Positions 9,727 through 21,140 of a stretch of DNA of 64,000 nucleotides are shown here, piece after piece. A program made the position numbers and the translations under genes. The notes beneath the pieces are model-generated. The model worked only from the letters and a program-made list of their open reading frames with translations, was not told where the DNA came from and ran no database searches. This stretch comes from Escherichia coli (GTDB lineage: Bacteria > Pseudomonadota > Gammaproteobacteria > Enterobacterales > Enterobacteriaceae). The stretch lies in the NCBI RefSeq assembly GCF_024223415.1, contig NZ_CP100502.1; one strand, written 5' to 3'. The first letter of the stretch is position 1, and every line of letters begins with the position of its first letter.

Positions 9727-10057
9727 GGAAGTCGCCGCCGGCTCCGCTTTACCCGGCCATGCGGGGCATGGCCTTGTGGGTTTTCAGTTATGTGGCCACC
9801 GTGTCGTGTGCGGGCTGTGCCGTGCCTCCATCTTAGCCGGGCTGGCAGGGATGCAAGGGTACGCTTCGCCGCTGCGGTCACCCGGTCCCTCCTTCCCGTC
9901 TGCCGTGATTTTCCGGTCGTTCACCCGCTCAGATTTCGCGGTCTCACCCTCCAACTCCCGCCAGCCGTGTGCGTCAGGCTGCGGCTTCCCTTGCGCCCTG
10001 TGCATCCCCGCCTTATCGCCCGGCTTTTATGGAGGCACGGCACCGCCCGGTGTCGCG
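9727..10057 (+). repeat. Family-A ssi/Frpo-like repeat, copy A1
   Basis: seq: about 330 nt nearly identical to 16711..17041, GC-rich and hairpin-rich, ending about 30 nt before a gene start. known: IncI1 and F leading regions carry ssi/Frpo single-strand promoters. Confidence 0.6.
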
Positions 10058-11199: not shown

Positions 11200-11905
11200 G
11201 CCCGCGCGAAAACCCCTGGCAGGCTGACGCCTGCCGGAAGGGAAGCGGGCCACGCTGGCGCGTCGCCCGTTACCCTTCCCGTCTGTGATGTGTCTGACTC
11301 AGGAGTGTTTCTTTCTTATGTTATGGAACTGTTCCTGATGTTGTTGTTCCTTTATCTGCTGCTCTGATTCTGACTACTGCAGTGTTGTTCTGTCTGCCGG
11401 GCGCACCTTCGGCTCCCGGCTGCCTGGCGGCATCCGGTCGTCAGGCCCGACTCCGACAGGCAGCTGCTGGCGCACCCGCCAGTCTCCGCCGAACCCGCTG
11501 GCGCGGTTTCGGGCTGTCGCTACGGTCCGATGCGTGAAAACCCGGGCTTGCAGCGACCGTTCCGGTCGCGCCGCCTCTGTCGCGCCGTGACCTGCGCTCC
11601 CTGCACACCTGACGGTGTGTGAGGAAACTGCGCCTGATGGCGCAGCAGTCCTCCCTCCTGCCGCCACCTCTGCGGCCTGTTTCCCGCTGTGGACTTTCCG
11701 GGGGGCAGACGTAACCCCCTCCCGTTCCATCTGTCCAGGGTGAGATGCACCGGCCACAAAATTTTTAGCCATGAACCCGGCAAAAAATTTTGCGTCCGCC
11801 CCCGGACAGCTGTCCCGTGAGGCGGTAAACGGGCCCCCATCGGAAAGGTCCACTGCGGGGAGAAACCCCTGTGAAGTGGACGGCAGGAGGAGCTTTCGCT
11901 CCTCT
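11200..11905 (+). repeat. Family-B ssi/Frpo-like repeat, copy B1
   Basis: seq: long GC-rich repeat shared with 17600..18250 and partly with 20815..21140 (e.g. 'caccttcggctcccggctgcctggcggcatccggtcgtcaggcccgactccgacaggcag'); ends about 70 nt before ssb. Confidence 0.55.
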
Positions 11906-15298: not shown

Positions 15299-16014
15299 GC
15301 GCACGTTCACGGGCACTGATCCCCCTCAGCGCAGAGCAACAGGCCGCCATGCAGGCTGTGGCTGTCACCGAACAACGTCGTCGTCAGGGACGCACACTTT
15401 CAGCATGGCCTTATGCCAGCGCTTTCTTTCGCTGCCTGAATGGCAGTCGCCGGATTTCGCTGACCGATCTCCGCTTTTTTGCTCCTGCGCTGACGAAGGA
15501 GGAATTTCATGGCAACCGTCTCCTGTGGCTGGCTGCCGTGGATAAACTGATTGAAAGTTTTGGTGAAGTCTGTGTTCTTCCCCTGCCATCCGATGCGGGG
15601 CATCGTCTGTTCCCGTCCGTTCCTTTTCGTGAAGGTGAGCGGCGTCGTCAGAAAACCACGCTGACAGAGCAGAAATACAGCCGCCAGCGGGAACGTGAGG
15701 CAGAACGACGGGAACTGGAATACCAGACATGTTTTGCTCAGGCGCAGATTGACCTTGCGTTTCATACTCCCGCCACGGTCGGAAGCTGGTTGTCCCGCTG
15801 GTCTGGTGTTGTTGAGGAGCATGATCTGGAAACGATTTTCTGGGGGTGGTGCGGGCGTTTTCCATCACTGTCATCATTTGACCGGTTTTTCTGGCAGGAG
15901 GAACCACTCTGGCGGCTGATTTTTGAAGCCGGTGAGGCCGGTCGTGGTGCACCGGTACAGGTACGTGCACTTGAGCAGTGGATGATCCCGAACAAGCTGG
16001 AGAACGCAATATGA
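15295..16014 (+). CDS. psiA: Plasmid SOS-inhibition protein A
   Basis: seq: 239 aa directly coupled to psiB; size and position match PsiA. Confidence 0.85.
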
Positions 16015-16607
16015 TGAAATCAGACGAACAATATCAGGTTCCCGTGTGGATGCGACCTCTGTTGCCGTTGCTCTGCAATACCGGTGGTAATGATCCGGAG
16101 GAACTGCTGAATGATACAGAAACCACCGCCAGTGCGAATATTGTCCGTTATGTACTGATAGTTGCAGTGCGGTCGCAGATTGATCTGCTGCAGCTACTGT
16201 ACAGGAAAGGACTGTTGCGCACAGAGATACCAGGTGGCTTTTCACCGGAAGAAGCGCAGGAACTCCTGGATAATCTGGTGCGCAGCCATATCAGCAAGGC
16301 GTTGTCGGGTGAGCGAATGGCAGCCCGTGACAGAAATGCCGATCTGACCTGGATTCGCCAGCAACTGGTCGATGCCGCCTGGTTTGTCCGTGCCACACTG
16401 GAAGCGCATGGGATGGGCGTCGGAAATGAGAGTCCCTCTGCTCCGCCGGAGACAATGCCGGACATACAGACACGGGAACTGGTTATGTTGATCAAGCGAC
16501 TGGCATCATCGCTGAAAGCGGTGAAACCCGACAGTAGCGTGGTGCGTGAAGCGCAGGACTGGCTGTGCGACAGAAAACTTGTGGATATCACAGATATTCT
16601 CCGGTGA
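16011..16607 (+). CDS. Hypothetical protein
   Basis: seq: ATG 16011 overlaps the psiA stop (track ORF from 15978). Confidence 0.45.
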   Translation: MMKSDEQYQVPVWMRPLLPLLCNTGGNDPEELLNDTETTASANIVRYVLIVAVRSQIDLLQLLYRKGLLRTEIPGGFSPEEAQELLDNLVRSHISKALSGERMAARDRNADLTWIRQQLVDAAWFVRATLEAHGMGVGNESPSAPPETMPDIQTRELVMLIKRLASSLKAVKPDSSVVREAQDWLCDRKLVDITDILR

Positions 16608-16710
16608 ACCAGACATGTATATTTTACGCAGGGACACGCCGATCATGATCGTTTCATATCAGGGGTGGTCTGGAGGTCATGCGGCGTGTCCTCTGCACTC
16701 GCCGGAATAA

Positions 16711-17041
16711 GGAAGTCGCCGGCGGCTCCGCTTTTACCCGGCCATGCGGGGCATGGCCTTGTGGGTTTTCAGCTCTGTGGCCTCAGCGTCGTGTGCGGGC
16801 TGTGCCGTGCCTCCATCTTAGCCGGGCTGGCAGGGATGCAAGGGTACGCTTCGCCGCTGCGGTCACCCGGTCCCTCCTTCCCGTCTGCCGTGATTTTCCG
16901 GTCGTTCACCCGCTCAGATTTCGCGGTCTCACCCTCCAACTCCCGCCAGCCGTGTGCGTCAGGCTGCGGCTTCCCTTGCGCCCTGTGCATCCCCGCCTTA
17001 TCGCCCGGCTTTTATGGAGGCACGGCACCGCCCGGTGTCGC
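16711..17041 (+). repeat. Family-A ssi/Frpo-like repeat, copy A2
   Basis: seq: near-identical to 9727..10057; ends about 30 nt before ardA. Confidence 0.6.
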
Positions 17042-17599: not shown

Positions 17600-18250
17600 C
17601 CTGCCAGGCCGCCGGAAAACCCTGGCAGGCTTACGCCTGCCTGAAATGCAGGAGGGCCGCGCCTGCGGCGCTGCCCTTCCTGCCCGTCATGGTGTGAGGC
17701 ATTTTTCTGTTATGTCGTTTCTGTTGTTCTGATTTCCGGAGGCGGGGACACCTTCGGCTCCCGGCTGCCTGGCGGCATCCGGTCGTCAGGCCCGACTCCG
17801 ACAGGCAGCTGCTGGCGCACCCGCCAGTCTCCGCCGAACCCGCTGGCGCGGTTTCGGGCTGCCGCTACGGTCCGATGTCTGAAAAACCAGGCTTGCAGCG
17901 ACCGTTCCGGTCGCGCCGCCCCTGTCGCGCCGGAAACGGCGCTCCCTGCACACCTTACGGTGTGTAAGGCAACTGCGCCTGATGGCGCAGTCAACCCTTC
18001 CGCCGCCACCCCTGCGGCCTGTTTCCCGCTGTGGACTTTCCGGGGGCTGGAGTAACCACATCCCGTTTCAGCAGTCCAGGGGAAGATATACCGTCCACAA
18101 AATTTTTAGCCATAAACCCGGCAAAAAATTTTGCGTCCGCCCCCGGACAGCTGCCCCGTGACGTGGTGACGGACGCCCCATCGGAAAGGTCCACTGCGGG
18201 GAGAAACCCCGAAGAAGTGGACGGCAGAAGGGGCTTTCGCCCCTCCGGGG
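17600..18250 (+). repeat. Family-B ssi/Frpo-like repeat, copy B2
   Basis: seq: aligns along its length with 11200..11905; starts right after the ardA stop. Confidence 0.55.
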
Positions 18251-18298: not shown

Positions 18299-18733
18299 AT
18301 GACAGTCAGCAGCACGATTTCCGTTTTTTGCCGCGACGGGGTGTTCCGTACCGTTTACTGCCACCTGCACGGGGAGCCGACCTGGAACGGTCGCATCCTG
18401 CATACTCACTATGCCACCGGTCAGCAGGCCGAAGCCCTGGTTGAACACGGTGATATCCGTTGCCTCGGTCCCCGTTGTGACAAACCCGCCGGGCATACGC
18501 TTCAGAACCCGGTGGACGGTGTGACGGCTTATTACGGACGTGACAGTGGTTTCCGGATGGACAGTGAGGCGCGTGAGTACCGTTCTTTCAGGGAGGCTAT
18601 TGCCACTGAAAGCACTGAAGAGGTGCGCTTCCATTATGTGTTCATCGACGGCTACTGGAAGGTGATGTACCGCACGCCGGAAGGCTGGAAGATGAAAGCG
18701 CTCGCGCTGGCACTGCGTCGCTGTCCGAAATGA
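18299..18733 (+). CDS. Hypothetical protein
   Basis: seq: 144 aa with strong AGAAGGAG RBS, first gene downstream of copy B2. Confidence 0.5.
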   Translation: MTVSSTISVFCRDGVFRTVYCHLHGEPTWNGRILHTHYATGQQAEALVEHGDIRCLGPRCDKPAGHTLQNPVDGVTAYYGRDSGFRMDSEAREYRSFREAIATESTEEVRFHYVFIDGYWKVMYRTPEGWKMKALALALRRCPK

Positions 18734-18824
18734 AAAAAAGGCAGGGCGATAAACCCTGCCTCTCTCCGCCGTTACTTCCCCGCCAGGAAGAGCGGCAGTC
18801 ATCAACAACATAAGGAGTAATATT

Positions 18825-19091
18825 GTGAGACCATCAATTATCTTCGCAACCGCCGAGTATGTAAAGCGTCTGCGTGAAGAGTGCCTGCGGGAGAATAAAC
18901 CCCTGCACCGCCATACCCGCTTCAGACGTCAGGAGCTGGCACAGGATGAGATTAACCCGGACGTCCTGGCGATGAGCGGCCATATCGCCAGACGCTGCAG
19001 TGAGCAGAAGCGGGTGCGTATCCCCGCTATGAAAGTCAGCGAATGGGGCCACCTGCTCCGCGCGCTTGAAATTGAGCGGGTCTGCCACTGA
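18825..19091 (+). CDS. Hypothetical small basic protein
   Basis: seq: 88 aa, GTG start with AAGGAG RBS. Confidence 0.4.
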   Translation: MRPSIIFATAEYVKRLREECLRENKPLHRHTRFRRQELAQDEINPDVLAMSGHIARRCSEQKRVRIPAMKVSEWGHLLRALEIERVCH

Positions 19092-19155
19092 TTAACCCTT
19101 GCCGTCTGCCTGTGCAGGCGGCAGGATACGTTCAGACATCTCACCAGGAGGAACC

Positions 19156-20097
19156 GTGAGTAAGAAGAAAAACACCACAACGCCCACGCCGCATGATGCC
19201 GCGTTCCGGTCGTTCCTGGCGAATCCCGACGTCGCCAGAGATTTTCTGGAACTGCATCTTCCTGCGGAGTACCGGCAGTTGTGCGACCTGTCCACGCTGA
19301 AGCTGGAACCCGCCACCTTTGTTGAGCCGGACCTGCATCAGTACGCCAGCGATATCCTCTGGAGCGTGAAAACCACCGGGGGTGAAGATGGTTATGTTTA
19401 TACGCTCATCGAGCACCAGAGCACCGAAAATCTGTACATGCCTTTTCGCATGTTACGCTACAGTGTGGCGGCGATGCAGAGACATCTGGAGCAGCACAAA
19501 ACGTTGCCACTGGTCATTCCGGTGCTGTTCTATCACGGTGAGCGCAGCCCGTACCCGTACAGCATGAACTGGCTGGACTGTTTTGAGAATCCGGCGCTTG
19601 CGGCTAAAATATACACAAAGCCGTTTCCGCTGGTTGATATCACTGTCGTTGATGACAATGAAATCATGAACCATCGCCGGATGGCCGCACTGACGCTGCT
19701 GATGAAGCATATCCGTCAGCGGGATATGCTGATGTGTCTGGACAACCTGGTCAGAGCACTGCAGGACATCCAGGATGAAGAGCAGATTACAGTTCTTTTC
19801 AACTATCTGCTTAATGGCAGCGAACATGTAACGGTTGAATTTTTGCAGACGCTGGCGCAGCGACTGCCGCAGCACGAGGACAGCATTATGACACTGGCAG
19901 AACGTCTTAAGCAGGAAGGTATCCAGCAAGGTATCCAGCAGGGTATCCAGCAGGGTATCCAGCAGGGAGTTCAGCAGGGGGCGCTTCAAAAAGCACGGGA
20001 AATCGCCCGGGAGCTCCGGAACGCGGGAATGCCGGCAGCACAAATCTGTCAGCTGACCGGACTTTCTGAAGCTGAACTGAAGAACATCACTCACTGA
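19156..20097 (+). CDS. rpn: Rpn-family (YhgA-like, PD-(D/E)XK) recombination-promoting nuclease
   Basis: seq: GTG 19156 with CAGGAGG RBS (track from 19099); N-terminal 'HDAAFRSFLANPDVARDFLELHLP...YASDILWSV...YTLIEHQSTE' matches the YhgA/Rpn family from memory. Confidence 0.75.
   Translation: MSKKKNTTTPTPHDAAFRSFLANPDVARDFLELHLPAEYRQLCDLSTLKLEPATFVEPDLHQYASDILWSVKTTGGEDGYVYTLIEHQSTENLYMPFRMLRYSVAAMQRHLEQHKTLPLVIPVLFYHGERSPYPYSMNWLDCFENPALAAKIYTKPFPLVDITVVDDNEIMNHRRMAALTLLMKHIRQRDMLMCLDNLVRALQDIQDEEQITVLFNYLLNGSEHVTVEFLQTLAQRLPQHEDSIMTLAERLKQEGIQQGIQQGIQQGIQQGVQQGALQKAREIARELRNAGMPAAQICQLTGLSEAELKNITH
19888..20097 (+). CDS. Candidate intragenic small protein (RpnS-like), in frame with the rpn C-terminus
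   Basis: seq: internal ATG 19888 preceded by GAGGA at 8 nt spacing; would encode 'MTLAERLKQEG(IQQG)n...ALQKAREIARELRNAG...'. infer: by analogy with Rpn/RpnS intragenic pairs. Confidence 0.3.
   Translation: MTLAERLKQEGIQQGIQQGIQQGIQQGVQQGALQKAREIARELRNAGMPAAQICQLTGLSEAELKNITH
19919..19978 (+). repeat. Five tandem 12-bp repeats (ggtatccagcag) encoding (GIQQ)n within rpn
   Basis: seq: ggtatccagcaa, ggtatccagcag x3, ggagttcagcag in tandem. Confidence 0.9.
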
Positions 20098-20109
20098 TGA
20101 GAGCCAAAA

Positions 20110-20134
20110 GGCCCGGCAAAATGCCGGGCCTTTT
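20110..20134 (+). terminator. Rho-independent terminator after rpn
   Basis: seq: perfect 9-bp stem 'ggcccggca'/'tgccgggcc', 3-nt loop, then TTTT. Confidence 0.7.
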
Positions 20135-20158
20135 GCCAGCAGGAGCAGAGAAAACAGT

Positions 20159-20329
20159 ATGACGATTGCAGAACGTCTTATACAGAAAGGTTTTGAAAAA
20201 GGTGCTCTTGAAGTGGCGCGGGAAATAGCCTGCCGGCTTCGGGATATGGGCTGGACGCCGGAACGGATTCAGGAGGCCACGGGACTTTCCGGTGAAGAAC
20301 TGAAAAAACTGTTTCCTGATGAGCAGTAG
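20159..20329 (+). CDS. Free-standing small protein resembling the Rpn C-terminal tail (RpnS-like)
   Basis: seq: 56 aa 'MTIAERLIQKGFEKGALEVAREIACRLRDMGWTPERIQEATGLSGEELKKLFPDEQ' aligns with the rpn tail 'MTLAERLKQEG...GALQKAREIARELRNAGMPAAQICQLTGLSEAELKNITH'; AGGAG upstream; below the track's 60-aa cutoff. Confidence 0.5.
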   Translation: MTIAERLIQKGFEKGALEVAREIACRLRDMGWTPERIQEATGLSGEELKKLFPDEQ

Positions 20330-20359
20330 CCTGGCATTCTGCCAGGCTGTGAACCACGC

Positions 20360-20611
20360 TCACACATCCTCTGCCGTTTCCCCCAGTTCATTTTCCAGAC
20401 GCCTGATGATATCTGCCTTGCGCATCCCCTGCATGTGAGGCAGCAGGTCACGGACTGAAAGTGCCTGGGTGGTCCTCCAGACGGTGACATCCACCTGTTC
20501 CGCATTTTCCCAGGCGTGCCATGTTCTCTGTGTCACGCCAAATTCTCTGGCCGCTTTTTCGCGTGACCAGAGCATGCTTTTTCGCCAGATTCGCAGTTCC
20601 CAGCCGGTCAT
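20360..20611 (-). CDS. Small helix-turn-helix regulator
   Basis: seq: 83 aa; 'REKAAREFGVTQRTWHAWEN' looks like an HTH; one of only two minus-strand genes in the leading region. Confidence 0.5.
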   Translation of the reverse strand: MTGWELRIWRKSMLWSREKAAREFGVTQRTWHAWENAEQVDVTVWRTTQALSVRDLLPHMQGMRKADIIRRLENELGETAEDV

Positions 20612-20625
20612 AAAACACCTTTGAA

Positions 20626-20712
20626 AAAGTGAAAAAACTTCACTTTATTTTATCACCATAACCACCAAATCAGCGCGAAAAATAAGTGTGAAAAAGTGAA
20701 GGAATTTCACTT
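20626..20712. promoter_or_regulatory. Two palindromic operator-like sites AAGTGAA-N5-TTCACTT upstream of the HTH gene
   Basis: seq: palindromes at 20627..20645 and 20694..20712. Confidence 0.4.
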
Positions 20713-20814
20713 TTTTTGATTGTAGGTGTCGTGCTGTTTTCTCTGTTTTCACCTGTGCGGGAGTGGTGTGCCAGTGACCACCACATGCCATTGTTGCGCC
20801 GTCGTTTTTCTTCA

Positions 20815-21140
20815 GTCGCGCCGGATGCGGCGCTCCCTGCACACCTTACGGTGTGTAAGGCCACTGCGCCTGATGGCGCAGCTGTCTCTGCCTGTCTGCC
20901 GCCGCACTGCGGCCTGTTCTCCGCAGATGGACTTTCCGGGGGTACATACACGACCACATCCCGTTTCAGTCGTCCAGGGGAGAGATGTACCAGCCACAAA
21001 ACTTTTTGCCGCAGGCGTCAAAAACTTTTGCGTCTGCCCCCGGACAACTGCCCCGTGACGTGGTGAGCGTCCCCCGTCGGAAAGGTCCACTGCGGGGAAA
21101 TCCCCGAAGACCCGGACGGCAGAAGGAGCTTCGCTCCTCC
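20815..21140 (+). repeat. Family-B ssi/Frpo-like repeat, copy B3 (5'-truncated)
   Basis: seq: matches the 3' two-thirds of B1/B2 from 'ggcgctccctgcacaccttacggtgtgtaagg' onward. Confidence 0.5.

Follow-up and report, generated by a model that had tools for sequence, protein, structure and literature searches.

A stand-alone Rpn tail gene behind the RpnP2 nuclease gene in the leading region of an IncI1 plasmid

The locus considered here lies in a stretch of 64,000 nucleotides (nt) of Escherichia coli DNA (contig NZ_CP100502.1, assembly GCF_024223415.1; hereafter the window) and joins a gene for an Rpn-family nuclease to a small open reading frame (ORF) for a protein of 56 amino acids (aa). Rpn genes encode two proteins, a toxic long nuclease (RpnL) and, by initiation at an internal start codon, a short antitoxin (RpnS) that corresponds to its C-terminal end (Zhong et al., 2023, PNAS 120:e2307382120; PMC10400941). 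An earlier note on this DNA, drawn from the letters alone, had pointed to both genes. We are highly confident that the locus consists of RpnP2, in its long and short forms, together with a gene of the rpnSs class, i.e., the stand-alone downstream tail genes already named by Zhong et al. (ypaA = rpnESs; rpnCSs), which occur on chromosomes and plasmids (PMC10400941).

RpnP2 and the gene behind it

The nuclease gene runs exactly where the earlier note had placed it (Table 1). Residues 11–209 of its product match the Pfam family PF04754 (Transposase_31/YhgA-like; E 4.3e-78), and the protein is recognized by the NCBIfam model RpnA at E 7e-97 and by TIGR01784 at 178 bits against a cutoff of 52.1. 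The oligonucleotides of Zhong et al. (preprint supplement file 3) were mapped onto the window. The native-promoter RpnP2 gBlock AO591 proved identical to window 18856–19254 at 399 of 399 bases, and the published RpnP2 deletion primers flank 19156–20097. Compared with the window, the RpnS-null gBlock AO714 is changed at 19876–78 (GAG to TCT), 19883, 19888 (A to T), and 19890 (G to A), its other changes within 391 nt being only three silent allele differences. The in-frame GAGGA-ATG start proposed at 19888 in the earlier note is the very site whose bases Zhong et al. mutated to abolish RpnP2S. Because the RpnP2 constructs map here and the RpnS-null mutations strike GAGGA and ATG 19888, the Rpn gene of the window and its intragenic RpnS are an already known gene, reported as plasmid-borne in E. 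coli ECOR13 and as protective against T-even phages (Zhong et al., 2023; PMC10400941).

The four residues changed in the published active-site mutant gBlock AO730 (D14, D66, E86, and Q88) are all wild type in the window RpnL, and the first 133 residues are identical to that construct apart from the four engineered changes. By analogy with the near-identical ECOR13 allele, for which this activity is reported, RpnL would be a toxic DNA endonuclease. In that near-identical RpnP2, RpnS is the same C-terminal three-helix domain as the RpnL tail, which it binds to keep the nuclease inactive, and T-even plaquing is reduced; the antitoxin function was shown by immunoblot and by the toxicity of RpnP2L* versus RpnP2LS (PMC10400941). 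The RpnS tail of the window resembles the sequence of the RpnA-S crystal structure 7TH0 (E 0.0055) and the C-terminus of TIGR01784 (E 8e-9). Its four-residue repeat, (GIQQ)4-GVQQ, begins at RpnS residue 11, within the published range of 8–20 residues after the initial methionine. This helix-1 repeat varies among strains and sets pairing specificity; a mismatch of one repeat abolishes neutralization in RpnC, and RpnAS fails to block RpnBL (PMC10400941).

A sigma-70-like promoter match (TTGAGA, 16 nt, TAAAAT; 10/12) is also located inside rpn at window 19583–19610 (+), approximately 280 nt upstream of the RpnS start, in a promoter scan that found two sites against 1.2 expected by chance. This site could yield an RpnS-only transcript in the double-stranded state, which would be relevant to the RpnL:RpnS ratios for which Zhong et al. 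had no explanation.

The 56-aa ORF begins 61 nt past the rpn stop codon on the same strand, an arrangement found in all sampled plasmids apart from fusion or deletion variants. The earlier note took its product for a paralog of the Rpn tail, and this is borne out by BLASTP against the last 36 residues of Rpn (18/36 identities, 50%; E 1e-7), by an N-terminal MT[IL]AERL common to both proteins, and by the profile search that the note had called for, in which the protein matched the C-terminal end of TIGR01784 (positions 225–273 of 273) at E 2.9e-7 and the RpnA model at E 0.005. A Pfam-A scan gave no significant match in a Pfam copy without PF27070, the family (HTH_Rpn_C) to which homologues of the protein are assigned in precomputed Pfam annotation. 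By sequence, the protein matches 7TH0 at E 0.04. The AlphaFold (AF2) model is all-helical with a pLDDT of 82, and its top Foldseek match against the PDB is again the RpnA-S structure 7TH0, with a TM of 0.66 but an E-value of 0.65; the short length weakens these statistics and the match is supportive only. The 56-aa gene encodes the Rpn tail domain in diverged form, complete with the hypervariable helix-1 repeat. The belief of the earlier note that no stand-alone RpnS-like gene had been described has to be given up, as both the rpnSs genes of Zhong et al. (2023) and the Pfam family HTH_Rpn_C exist. YpaA is known to be made, and repeat variation among rpnSs proteins as well as their loss by fusion have been described (PMC10400941). 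No subsequent publication on small Rpn proteins emerged from a literature search.

Homologues of the 56-aa protein have 56, 60, 64, 68, 72, or 76 aa, corresponding to one to six GF[DEK][EKQ] units encoded by a 12-nt DNA repeat, and are confined to enterobacterial plasmids; some RefSeq records label the gene as “RpnC/YadD family protein”. Database forms with N-terminal extensions (77 and 69 aa) were not accepted as real because the window has no start codon in the upstream stretch and the extension crosses the hairpin that lies between the two genes. Sequence matches in the PDB to the IcmE/DotG repeat region (type IVB secretion; E 6e-13 overall), CAP repeats, and designed PPR proteins were likewise rejected as homology because each single stretch has an E-value of 22 or worse and the similarity is periodic or compositional. 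The likeness of the Rpn tail domain to IcmE/DotG is probably a matter of periodic, helix-turn-helix-like (HTH-like) composition.

The earlier note described the hairpin as a strong terminator and credited the small gene with its own ribosome-binding site, and each description stands in part. The hairpin has a very stable fold (−31.4 kcal/mol; z −5.3), yet in the window allele it is followed by no more than four T, and a consensus terminator scan of this allele did not list it; the T-run comprises 4–7 T across alleles, with 5–7 in alleles other than that of the window. The Shine-Dalgarno-like motif is AGGAG in most alleles and AGGGG in some, but its 13-nt spacing is longer than usual. In the related plasmids, every free tail gene is preceded by one unit composed of a stop codon, GC hairpin, T-run, and AGGAG.

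The small gene is found in 2031 PLSDB plasmids, with a coverage of at least 80% in 2028, and in 1340 of 5426 complete E. coli genomes, where 1733 of the 1751 places detected by DNA similarity are on plasmids and 18 are chromosomal. The core of the gene has a pN/pS of 0.25 with a pS of 0.11 (14 core alleles), and the start codon and the Shine-Dalgarno-like motif are conserved across alleles. These patterns suggest that the small gene is maintained and, indirectly, that its predicted protein may be made.

Tail cassettes across related plasmids

In an alignment of eight alleles, Rpn residues 1–186 are almost invariant, and a sharp, mosaic divergence begins at approximately residue 187 and continues to the end of the protein. 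Fifty related loci resolve into 13 haplotypes of tail types, which we named Q, Q′, R, and F, each haplotype consisting of an intragenic tail and one or two free cassettes. With the number of four-residue repeats given after each type, the haplotypes with Q are Q×5+F×1 (the window), Q×3+F×4, and Q×5+R×1+F×3, those with Q′ are Q′×7+R×2+F×5, Q′×6+R×2+F×5, and Q′×3+F×3, and those with an intragenic R are R×0+F×6, R×1+F×1, R×2+F×3, R×2+F×4, R×4+F×1, R×5+F×1, and R×6+F×2. The repeat is hypervariable, with three or five copies in Q-type alleles and zero to seven in the other types. The F core is 50% identical to the Q tail in cis (18/36), 64% to R (23/36), and 40% to Q′ (14/35), and is no closer than approximately 35–55%, over short stretches, to the tails of K-12 RpnA-E and YpaA. 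Because the F core is only 50% identical to the cis Q tail, the F cassette is not a recent duplicate of its neighbor. Clustering of an rpnSs with its own rpnS is reported for RpnCSs and RpnESs (PMC10400941), whereas the F cassette does not cluster with the tail of its own upstream rpn; such clustering characterizes the two examples described so far and does not define the family.

The same cassette can be found fused or free. The R cassette is intragenic in loci L012 and L022 and free-standing in L014 and L029. The F tail, with three repeats, is fused in frame to the Rpn nuclease domain on the IncI-gamma/K1 plasmid NZ_MZ152086.1 (L039, 1772–2695), where no free copy lies downstream, and this natural fusion indicates that F can become a nuclease tail once the DNA between the 5′ ends common to both cassettes is deleted. 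A full-length Rpn with an F tail was found in 1 of 60 plasmids sampled by tblastn. A search of 1.84 billion cluster representatives returned only short proteins, R-tailed fragments, and two distant full-length proteins at 38–40% identity, and clustering at 50% identity can hide full-length F-tailed alleles in a search of this kind. At this locus, tail cassettes of four types (Q, Q′, R, and F) form an array in which they can take each other's place, either fused to a constant nuclease domain or free behind it.

Other layouts were seen as well. Tandem free cassettes, R followed by F, lie behind rpn in L014/L015 (2281–2442) and in L029–L038 (e.g., L029 2269–2442), each with its hairpin and Shine-Dalgarno unit. 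In L002 (381–2500), the upstream part is replaced by DinI, Peptidase_S24, and DUF1281 genes, leaving a truncated tail ORF of the R type and the F cassette but no intact nuclease gene.

Possible roles of the free cassette

We consider it probable that the locus represents the RpnP2 toxin-antitoxin and anti-phage system of IncI-complex plasmids accompanied by a stand-alone cassette of the rpnSs kind, a judgment weighted mostly by the identity of the genes. More tentatively, the small gene may be a spare cassette or a type-specific binder rather than an antitoxin acting in cis. Read-through of the hairpin would yield small amounts of the free F protein, whose pairing would be restricted to Rpn tails that agree with it in type and repeat number; in that case it would not be a working antitoxin of the adjacent RpnL. 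The cassette would instead be kept as an alternative specificity that could take over from the resident tail when deletion or recombination occurs at the MTIAERL 5′ end common to both, and might also provide type-specific immunity against an F-tailed RpnL. An F protein with one repeat and 50% identity is unlikely to serve a five-repeat, Q-tailed RpnL because a single-repeat mismatch is enough to abolish neutralization in RpnC and RpnAS fails on RpnBL. Moreover, RpnS alone suffices, since RpnP2LS constructs without an intact small gene are still non-toxic and protective (PMC10400941); these constructs extend “101 bp downstream” of the rpn stop, and the reverse primer ends at approximately window 20198, about 13 codons into the 56-aa gene.

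Several points weigh against the reading of F as a spare cassette or type-specific binder. The predicted product of the F ORF may be barely translated, given the terminator-like hairpin and the Shine-Dalgarno spacing. The rule of repeat matching comes from RpnC alone, not from RpnP2 or cross-type pairs. As F-tailed RpnL is rare in the sampled plasmids, type-specific immunity would have few targets, and a pN/pS below 1 could reflect past or future periods of fusion to Rpn instead of selection on the free protein. Finally, the 13 haplotypes were sampled through F-variant queries and are neither a census nor phylogenetically independent.

The earlier note had proposed that the small protein is an extra antitoxin for the plasmid's own Rpn, i.e., that it binds RpnL and adds to RpnS, for example by buffering toxicity when the operon is induced in the recipient. 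The two genes share a domain family, an operon, and an orientation, the K-12 counterpart YpaA is made, and an element resembling a single-stranded DNA (ssDNA) promoter lies upstream; such operons are upregulated up to approximately 500-fold at 15 min in the IncI1 plasmid pESBL, which has the same gene pair (PMC12672017). However, the core of the protein is only 50% identical to the resident tail, and its repeat number is unrelated to that of the cis RpnL tail (5 in RpnL versus 1 in the window cassette; Spearman rho −0.03 over the 13 haplotypes; equal in 2 of 13). These points, together with the RpnC and RpnAS/RpnBL mismatches, the non-toxicity of RpnP2LS without an intact small gene, and the terminator-like hairpin between the genes, disfavor this explanation, which we regard as unlikely. 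The other proposal of the note, a decoy for chromosomal Rpn nucleases, found no support, as the tails of K-12 show only low identity and nearly all places of the small gene are plasmid-borne. In a broader form, the small protein would be among the first proteins made in the recipient and would neutralize a resident Rpn, either chromosomal RpnA-H or the RpnL of a resident I-complex plasmid. Such a role would suit a gene in the leading region, in T-strand orientation and behind an ssi element, and leading regions are enriched in orphan antitoxins, for which a role against toxins of the host or of rival elements has been proposed (PMC11541004). Hypervariable repeats would fit an arms race, and an F-tailed RpnL does exist on an IncI-gamma/K1 plasmid. 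Nevertheless, no close chromosomal counterpart was found in a comparison with the tails of K-12 RpnA-E and YpaA, few of the sampled plasmids have an F-tailed RpnL, and the upstream hairpin is expected to dampen expression, which makes a decoy improbable.

The small gene could also be a decaying remnant, a tail that an early duplication or module swap left behind and that no longer has a function. The hairpin and the sub-optimal Shine-Dalgarno spacing would be in keeping with decay, ypaA is flagged as a pseudogene in the K-12 RefSeq record NC_000913.3, cassettes can vanish by fusion or deletion (PMC10400941), and slippage of a 12-nt repeat preserves the frame without selection. Against this stand an ORF that is intact in 2028 of 2031 carrier plasmids, a low pN/pS at a pS of 0.11, the conserved start codon and Shine-Dalgarno-like motif, and an F tail that evidently works as part of the fused nuclease, whose full-length ORF is maintained; decay is therefore a poor candidate. 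A more speculative reading, with little probability in our estimate, is that the free cassettes (F, and R where present) are inter-plasmid weapons and not spare parts, induced from the single-stranded promoter on entry and disarming the Rpn of resident I-complex plasmids with matching type and repeat number, while the array also allows the plasmid to re-arm its own nuclease with a different tail by a single deletion. If true, the array would serve a toxin-antitoxin defense nuclease both as a specificity switch and as a source of immunity.

Plasmid setting and known systems

The window is a classical IncI1 leading region, an assignment that follows from the surrounding genes ssb, psiB, psiA, ardA, rpn, and nikA/nikB. 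The IncI1 plasmids ColIb-P9 (NC_002122.1) and R64 (NC_005014.1) are 100% identical to window 19000–20700, and approximately 2000 PLSDB plasmids from Escherichia, Salmonella, Shigella, and Klebsiella, nearly all conjugative, contain a similar stretch. The ColIb-P9 annotation gives the order ssb, DUF905, ParB-like, psiB, psiA, TnpB, ardA, two hypothetical genes, Rpn, the 56-aa hypothetical gene, a convergent HTH gene, DUF4942, and nikA-nikB; from ssb through the 56-aa ORF, all genes are on the + strand and oriented toward oriT. A direct repeat of approximately 500 nt that resembles ssi/Frpo elements is present in three copies, 84–94% identical (repeat families D2–D6), and the ssi-like element that the earlier note saw ahead of the operon is indeed one of these (Table 1). 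The three copies presumably correspond to ssi1-3 of ColIb-P9. In ColIb-P9, ssi1-3 are responsible for zygotic induction of the IncI1 leading-region operons, and in pESBL-EA11 (IncI1) the operons behind ssi1-3 are induced up to approximately 500-fold within 15 min of mating (PMC12672017). The rpn operon of pESBL-EA11 is the same as that of the window, including Rpn and an F cassette of 68 aa. Judging from its position, the middle copy would drive the rpn operon, and rpn itself would be induced on conjugative entry.

Table 1. Positions of the features of the rpn operon and its surroundings in the window.
Feature	Position	Strand	Remarks
ssi/Frpo-like copy 1	11398–11904		Ahead of the operon beginning with ssb; direct repeat
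ssi/Frpo-like copy 2 (middle copy)	17743–18245	+	ssDNA-promoter-like; just ahead of operon 18299–20329; direct repeat
Operon gene 1, 144-aa hypothetical protein	18299–18733	+	ORF; annotated and conserved in all related loci
Operon gene 2, 88-aa hypothetical protein	18825–19091	+	ORF; conserved in related loci
rpnP2 long product RpnL, 313-aa Rpn/YhgA-like PD-(D/E)XK nuclease	19156–20097	+	GTG 19156 to TGA 20097
Exchangeable C-terminal module (linker and S domain)	19714–20097	+	Alignment of 8 alleles
Internal translation start of RpnS	19876–19890	+	GAGGA 19876–19880, 7-nt spacer, ATG 19888, in frame; sequence
rpnP2 short product RpnS, 69-aa intragenic antitoxin, Q-type tail	19888–20097	+	
12-nt tandem repeat, 5.2 copies, encoding (GIQQ)4-GVQQ of helix 1	19918–19979	+	Tandem Repeats Finder
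GC-rich hairpin and T-run, terminator or attenuator	20106–20134	+	Between rpn and the small gene; fold
AGGAG, Shine-Dalgarno-like motif	20141–20145	+	13 nt before ATG 20159; sequence
Stand-alone Rpn tail gene (rpnSs class), 56 aa, F-type cassette	20159–20329	+	Single GFEK unit; ORF
ssi/Frpo-like copy 3	20812–21075		Ahead of the DUF4942 operon; direct repeat

The 300 bp “native promoter” fragment that Zhong et al. chose for RpnP2 includes the 88-aa gene. For the neighboring proteins (144 aa, 88 aa, the 83-aa HTH protein, 65 aa, and DUF4942), PADLOC and NCBIfam searches yielded nothing of use, the 144- and 88-aa proteins having no family match. In many plasmids (L004–L006, L023, L040, L043, and pESBL L053 8518–8907), a further ORF of 129 aa separates the 88-aa gene from rpn and shares 4 nt with the start of rpn; the window lacks this ORF. 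Downstream, the conserved 83-aa HTH protein (20360–20611, −), whose sole family match is a weak PADLOC hit to mad1 (E 0.003), and a 65-aa ORF (20645–20842, −) both converge on the small gene, and a short hairpin lies between the F cassette and these ORFs at approximately 20330–20347. Upstream, a 300-nt direct repeat with 98% identity occurs at window 9748–10047 and 16733–17032, the second copy just upstream of ardA; the two copies may represent the “class 2” ssDNA promoters (klcA/ardA) that have been proposed as a pair in the IncI1 plasmid pESBL (PMC12672017). A gene of the RNA-guided endonuclease TnpB family lies between psiA and ardA at window ~15447–16622 (ColIb-P9 L001 5448–6623), and pESBL-EA11 has an unrelated 198-aa hypothetical gene in this interval instead.

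The Rpn gene with its intragenic RpnS is nothing new, being the published RpnP2, and the stand-alone gene is also of a described kind. What goes beyond the published paper is that its constructs cut the 56-aa gene, that this gene is a distinct F-type cassette with unlinked repeats, and that cassettes move between the fused and free states. A quarter of the complete E. coli genomes carry the small gene on plasmids, and a toxic defense nuclease is here part of an operon whose induction probably follows conjugative entry by only minutes. Whether the small gene is a silent spare, a type-specific immunity protein, or a regulator matters for how Rpn specificity diversifies and for why a defense nuclease belongs to the establishment program of IncI plasmids.

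The closest known system is RpnP2 of ECOR13, which shares with the window the gene, the internal ribosome-binding site and ATG, the Q-type GIQQ repeats, and the downstream hairpin, and differs by minor allele changes (3 silent in 391 nt; 2 of 40 bases in the hairpin primer). Its downstream cassette begins with GFDE, which implies at least two repeats, whereas the window cassette has a single GFEK unit; the RpnP2 paper does not give the position in a conjugative leading region, and the downstream small gene lay outside its tests. The pairs rpnE-ypaA and rpnC-rpnCSs have the same layout, with a tail copy immediately downstream on the same strand, an MTIAERL start, and a four-residue repeat, and K-12 YpaA has one extra KLEG unit relative to the intragenic copy, so that repeat number already differs there, as in the window. 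Unlike F, YpaA is a recent duplicate of its own upstream tail, close to it in sequence, and the duplication includes the internal ribosome-binding site (AAAGGAGAGATTAATG). In contrast, F is 50% identical to its cis tail and closer (64%) to another cassette type, is preceded by a hairpin with a T-run and a different Shine-Dalgarno motif, and can coexist with a second free cassette.

The small gene can also be compared with the orphan antitoxins of leading regions (Samuel et al., 2024, Nature 635:186; PMC11541004). It is likewise a short gene of antitoxin type for which no toxin is an obvious match, and it occupies the leading region close to ardA, psiB, and ssb, in the orientation that is read from the incoming single strand. 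The window gene differs in that a related toxin lies directly upstream, and an anti-defense role is here only a candidate; a close match to the partner domain of a host defense toxin that it would neutralize was not seen among the tails of K-12 RpnA-E and YpaA. The full text of PMC11541004 has no occurrence of Rpn. A further parallel, cited by Zhong et al., is the TAEL repeat of EcoR124I/II HsdS, in which the count of a four-residue helical-spacer repeat likewise sets the specificity of a defense nuclease, although TAEL alters the DNA target spacing of a type I restriction enzyme, whereas the Rpn repeat tunes the pairing of a toxin tail with its antitoxin.

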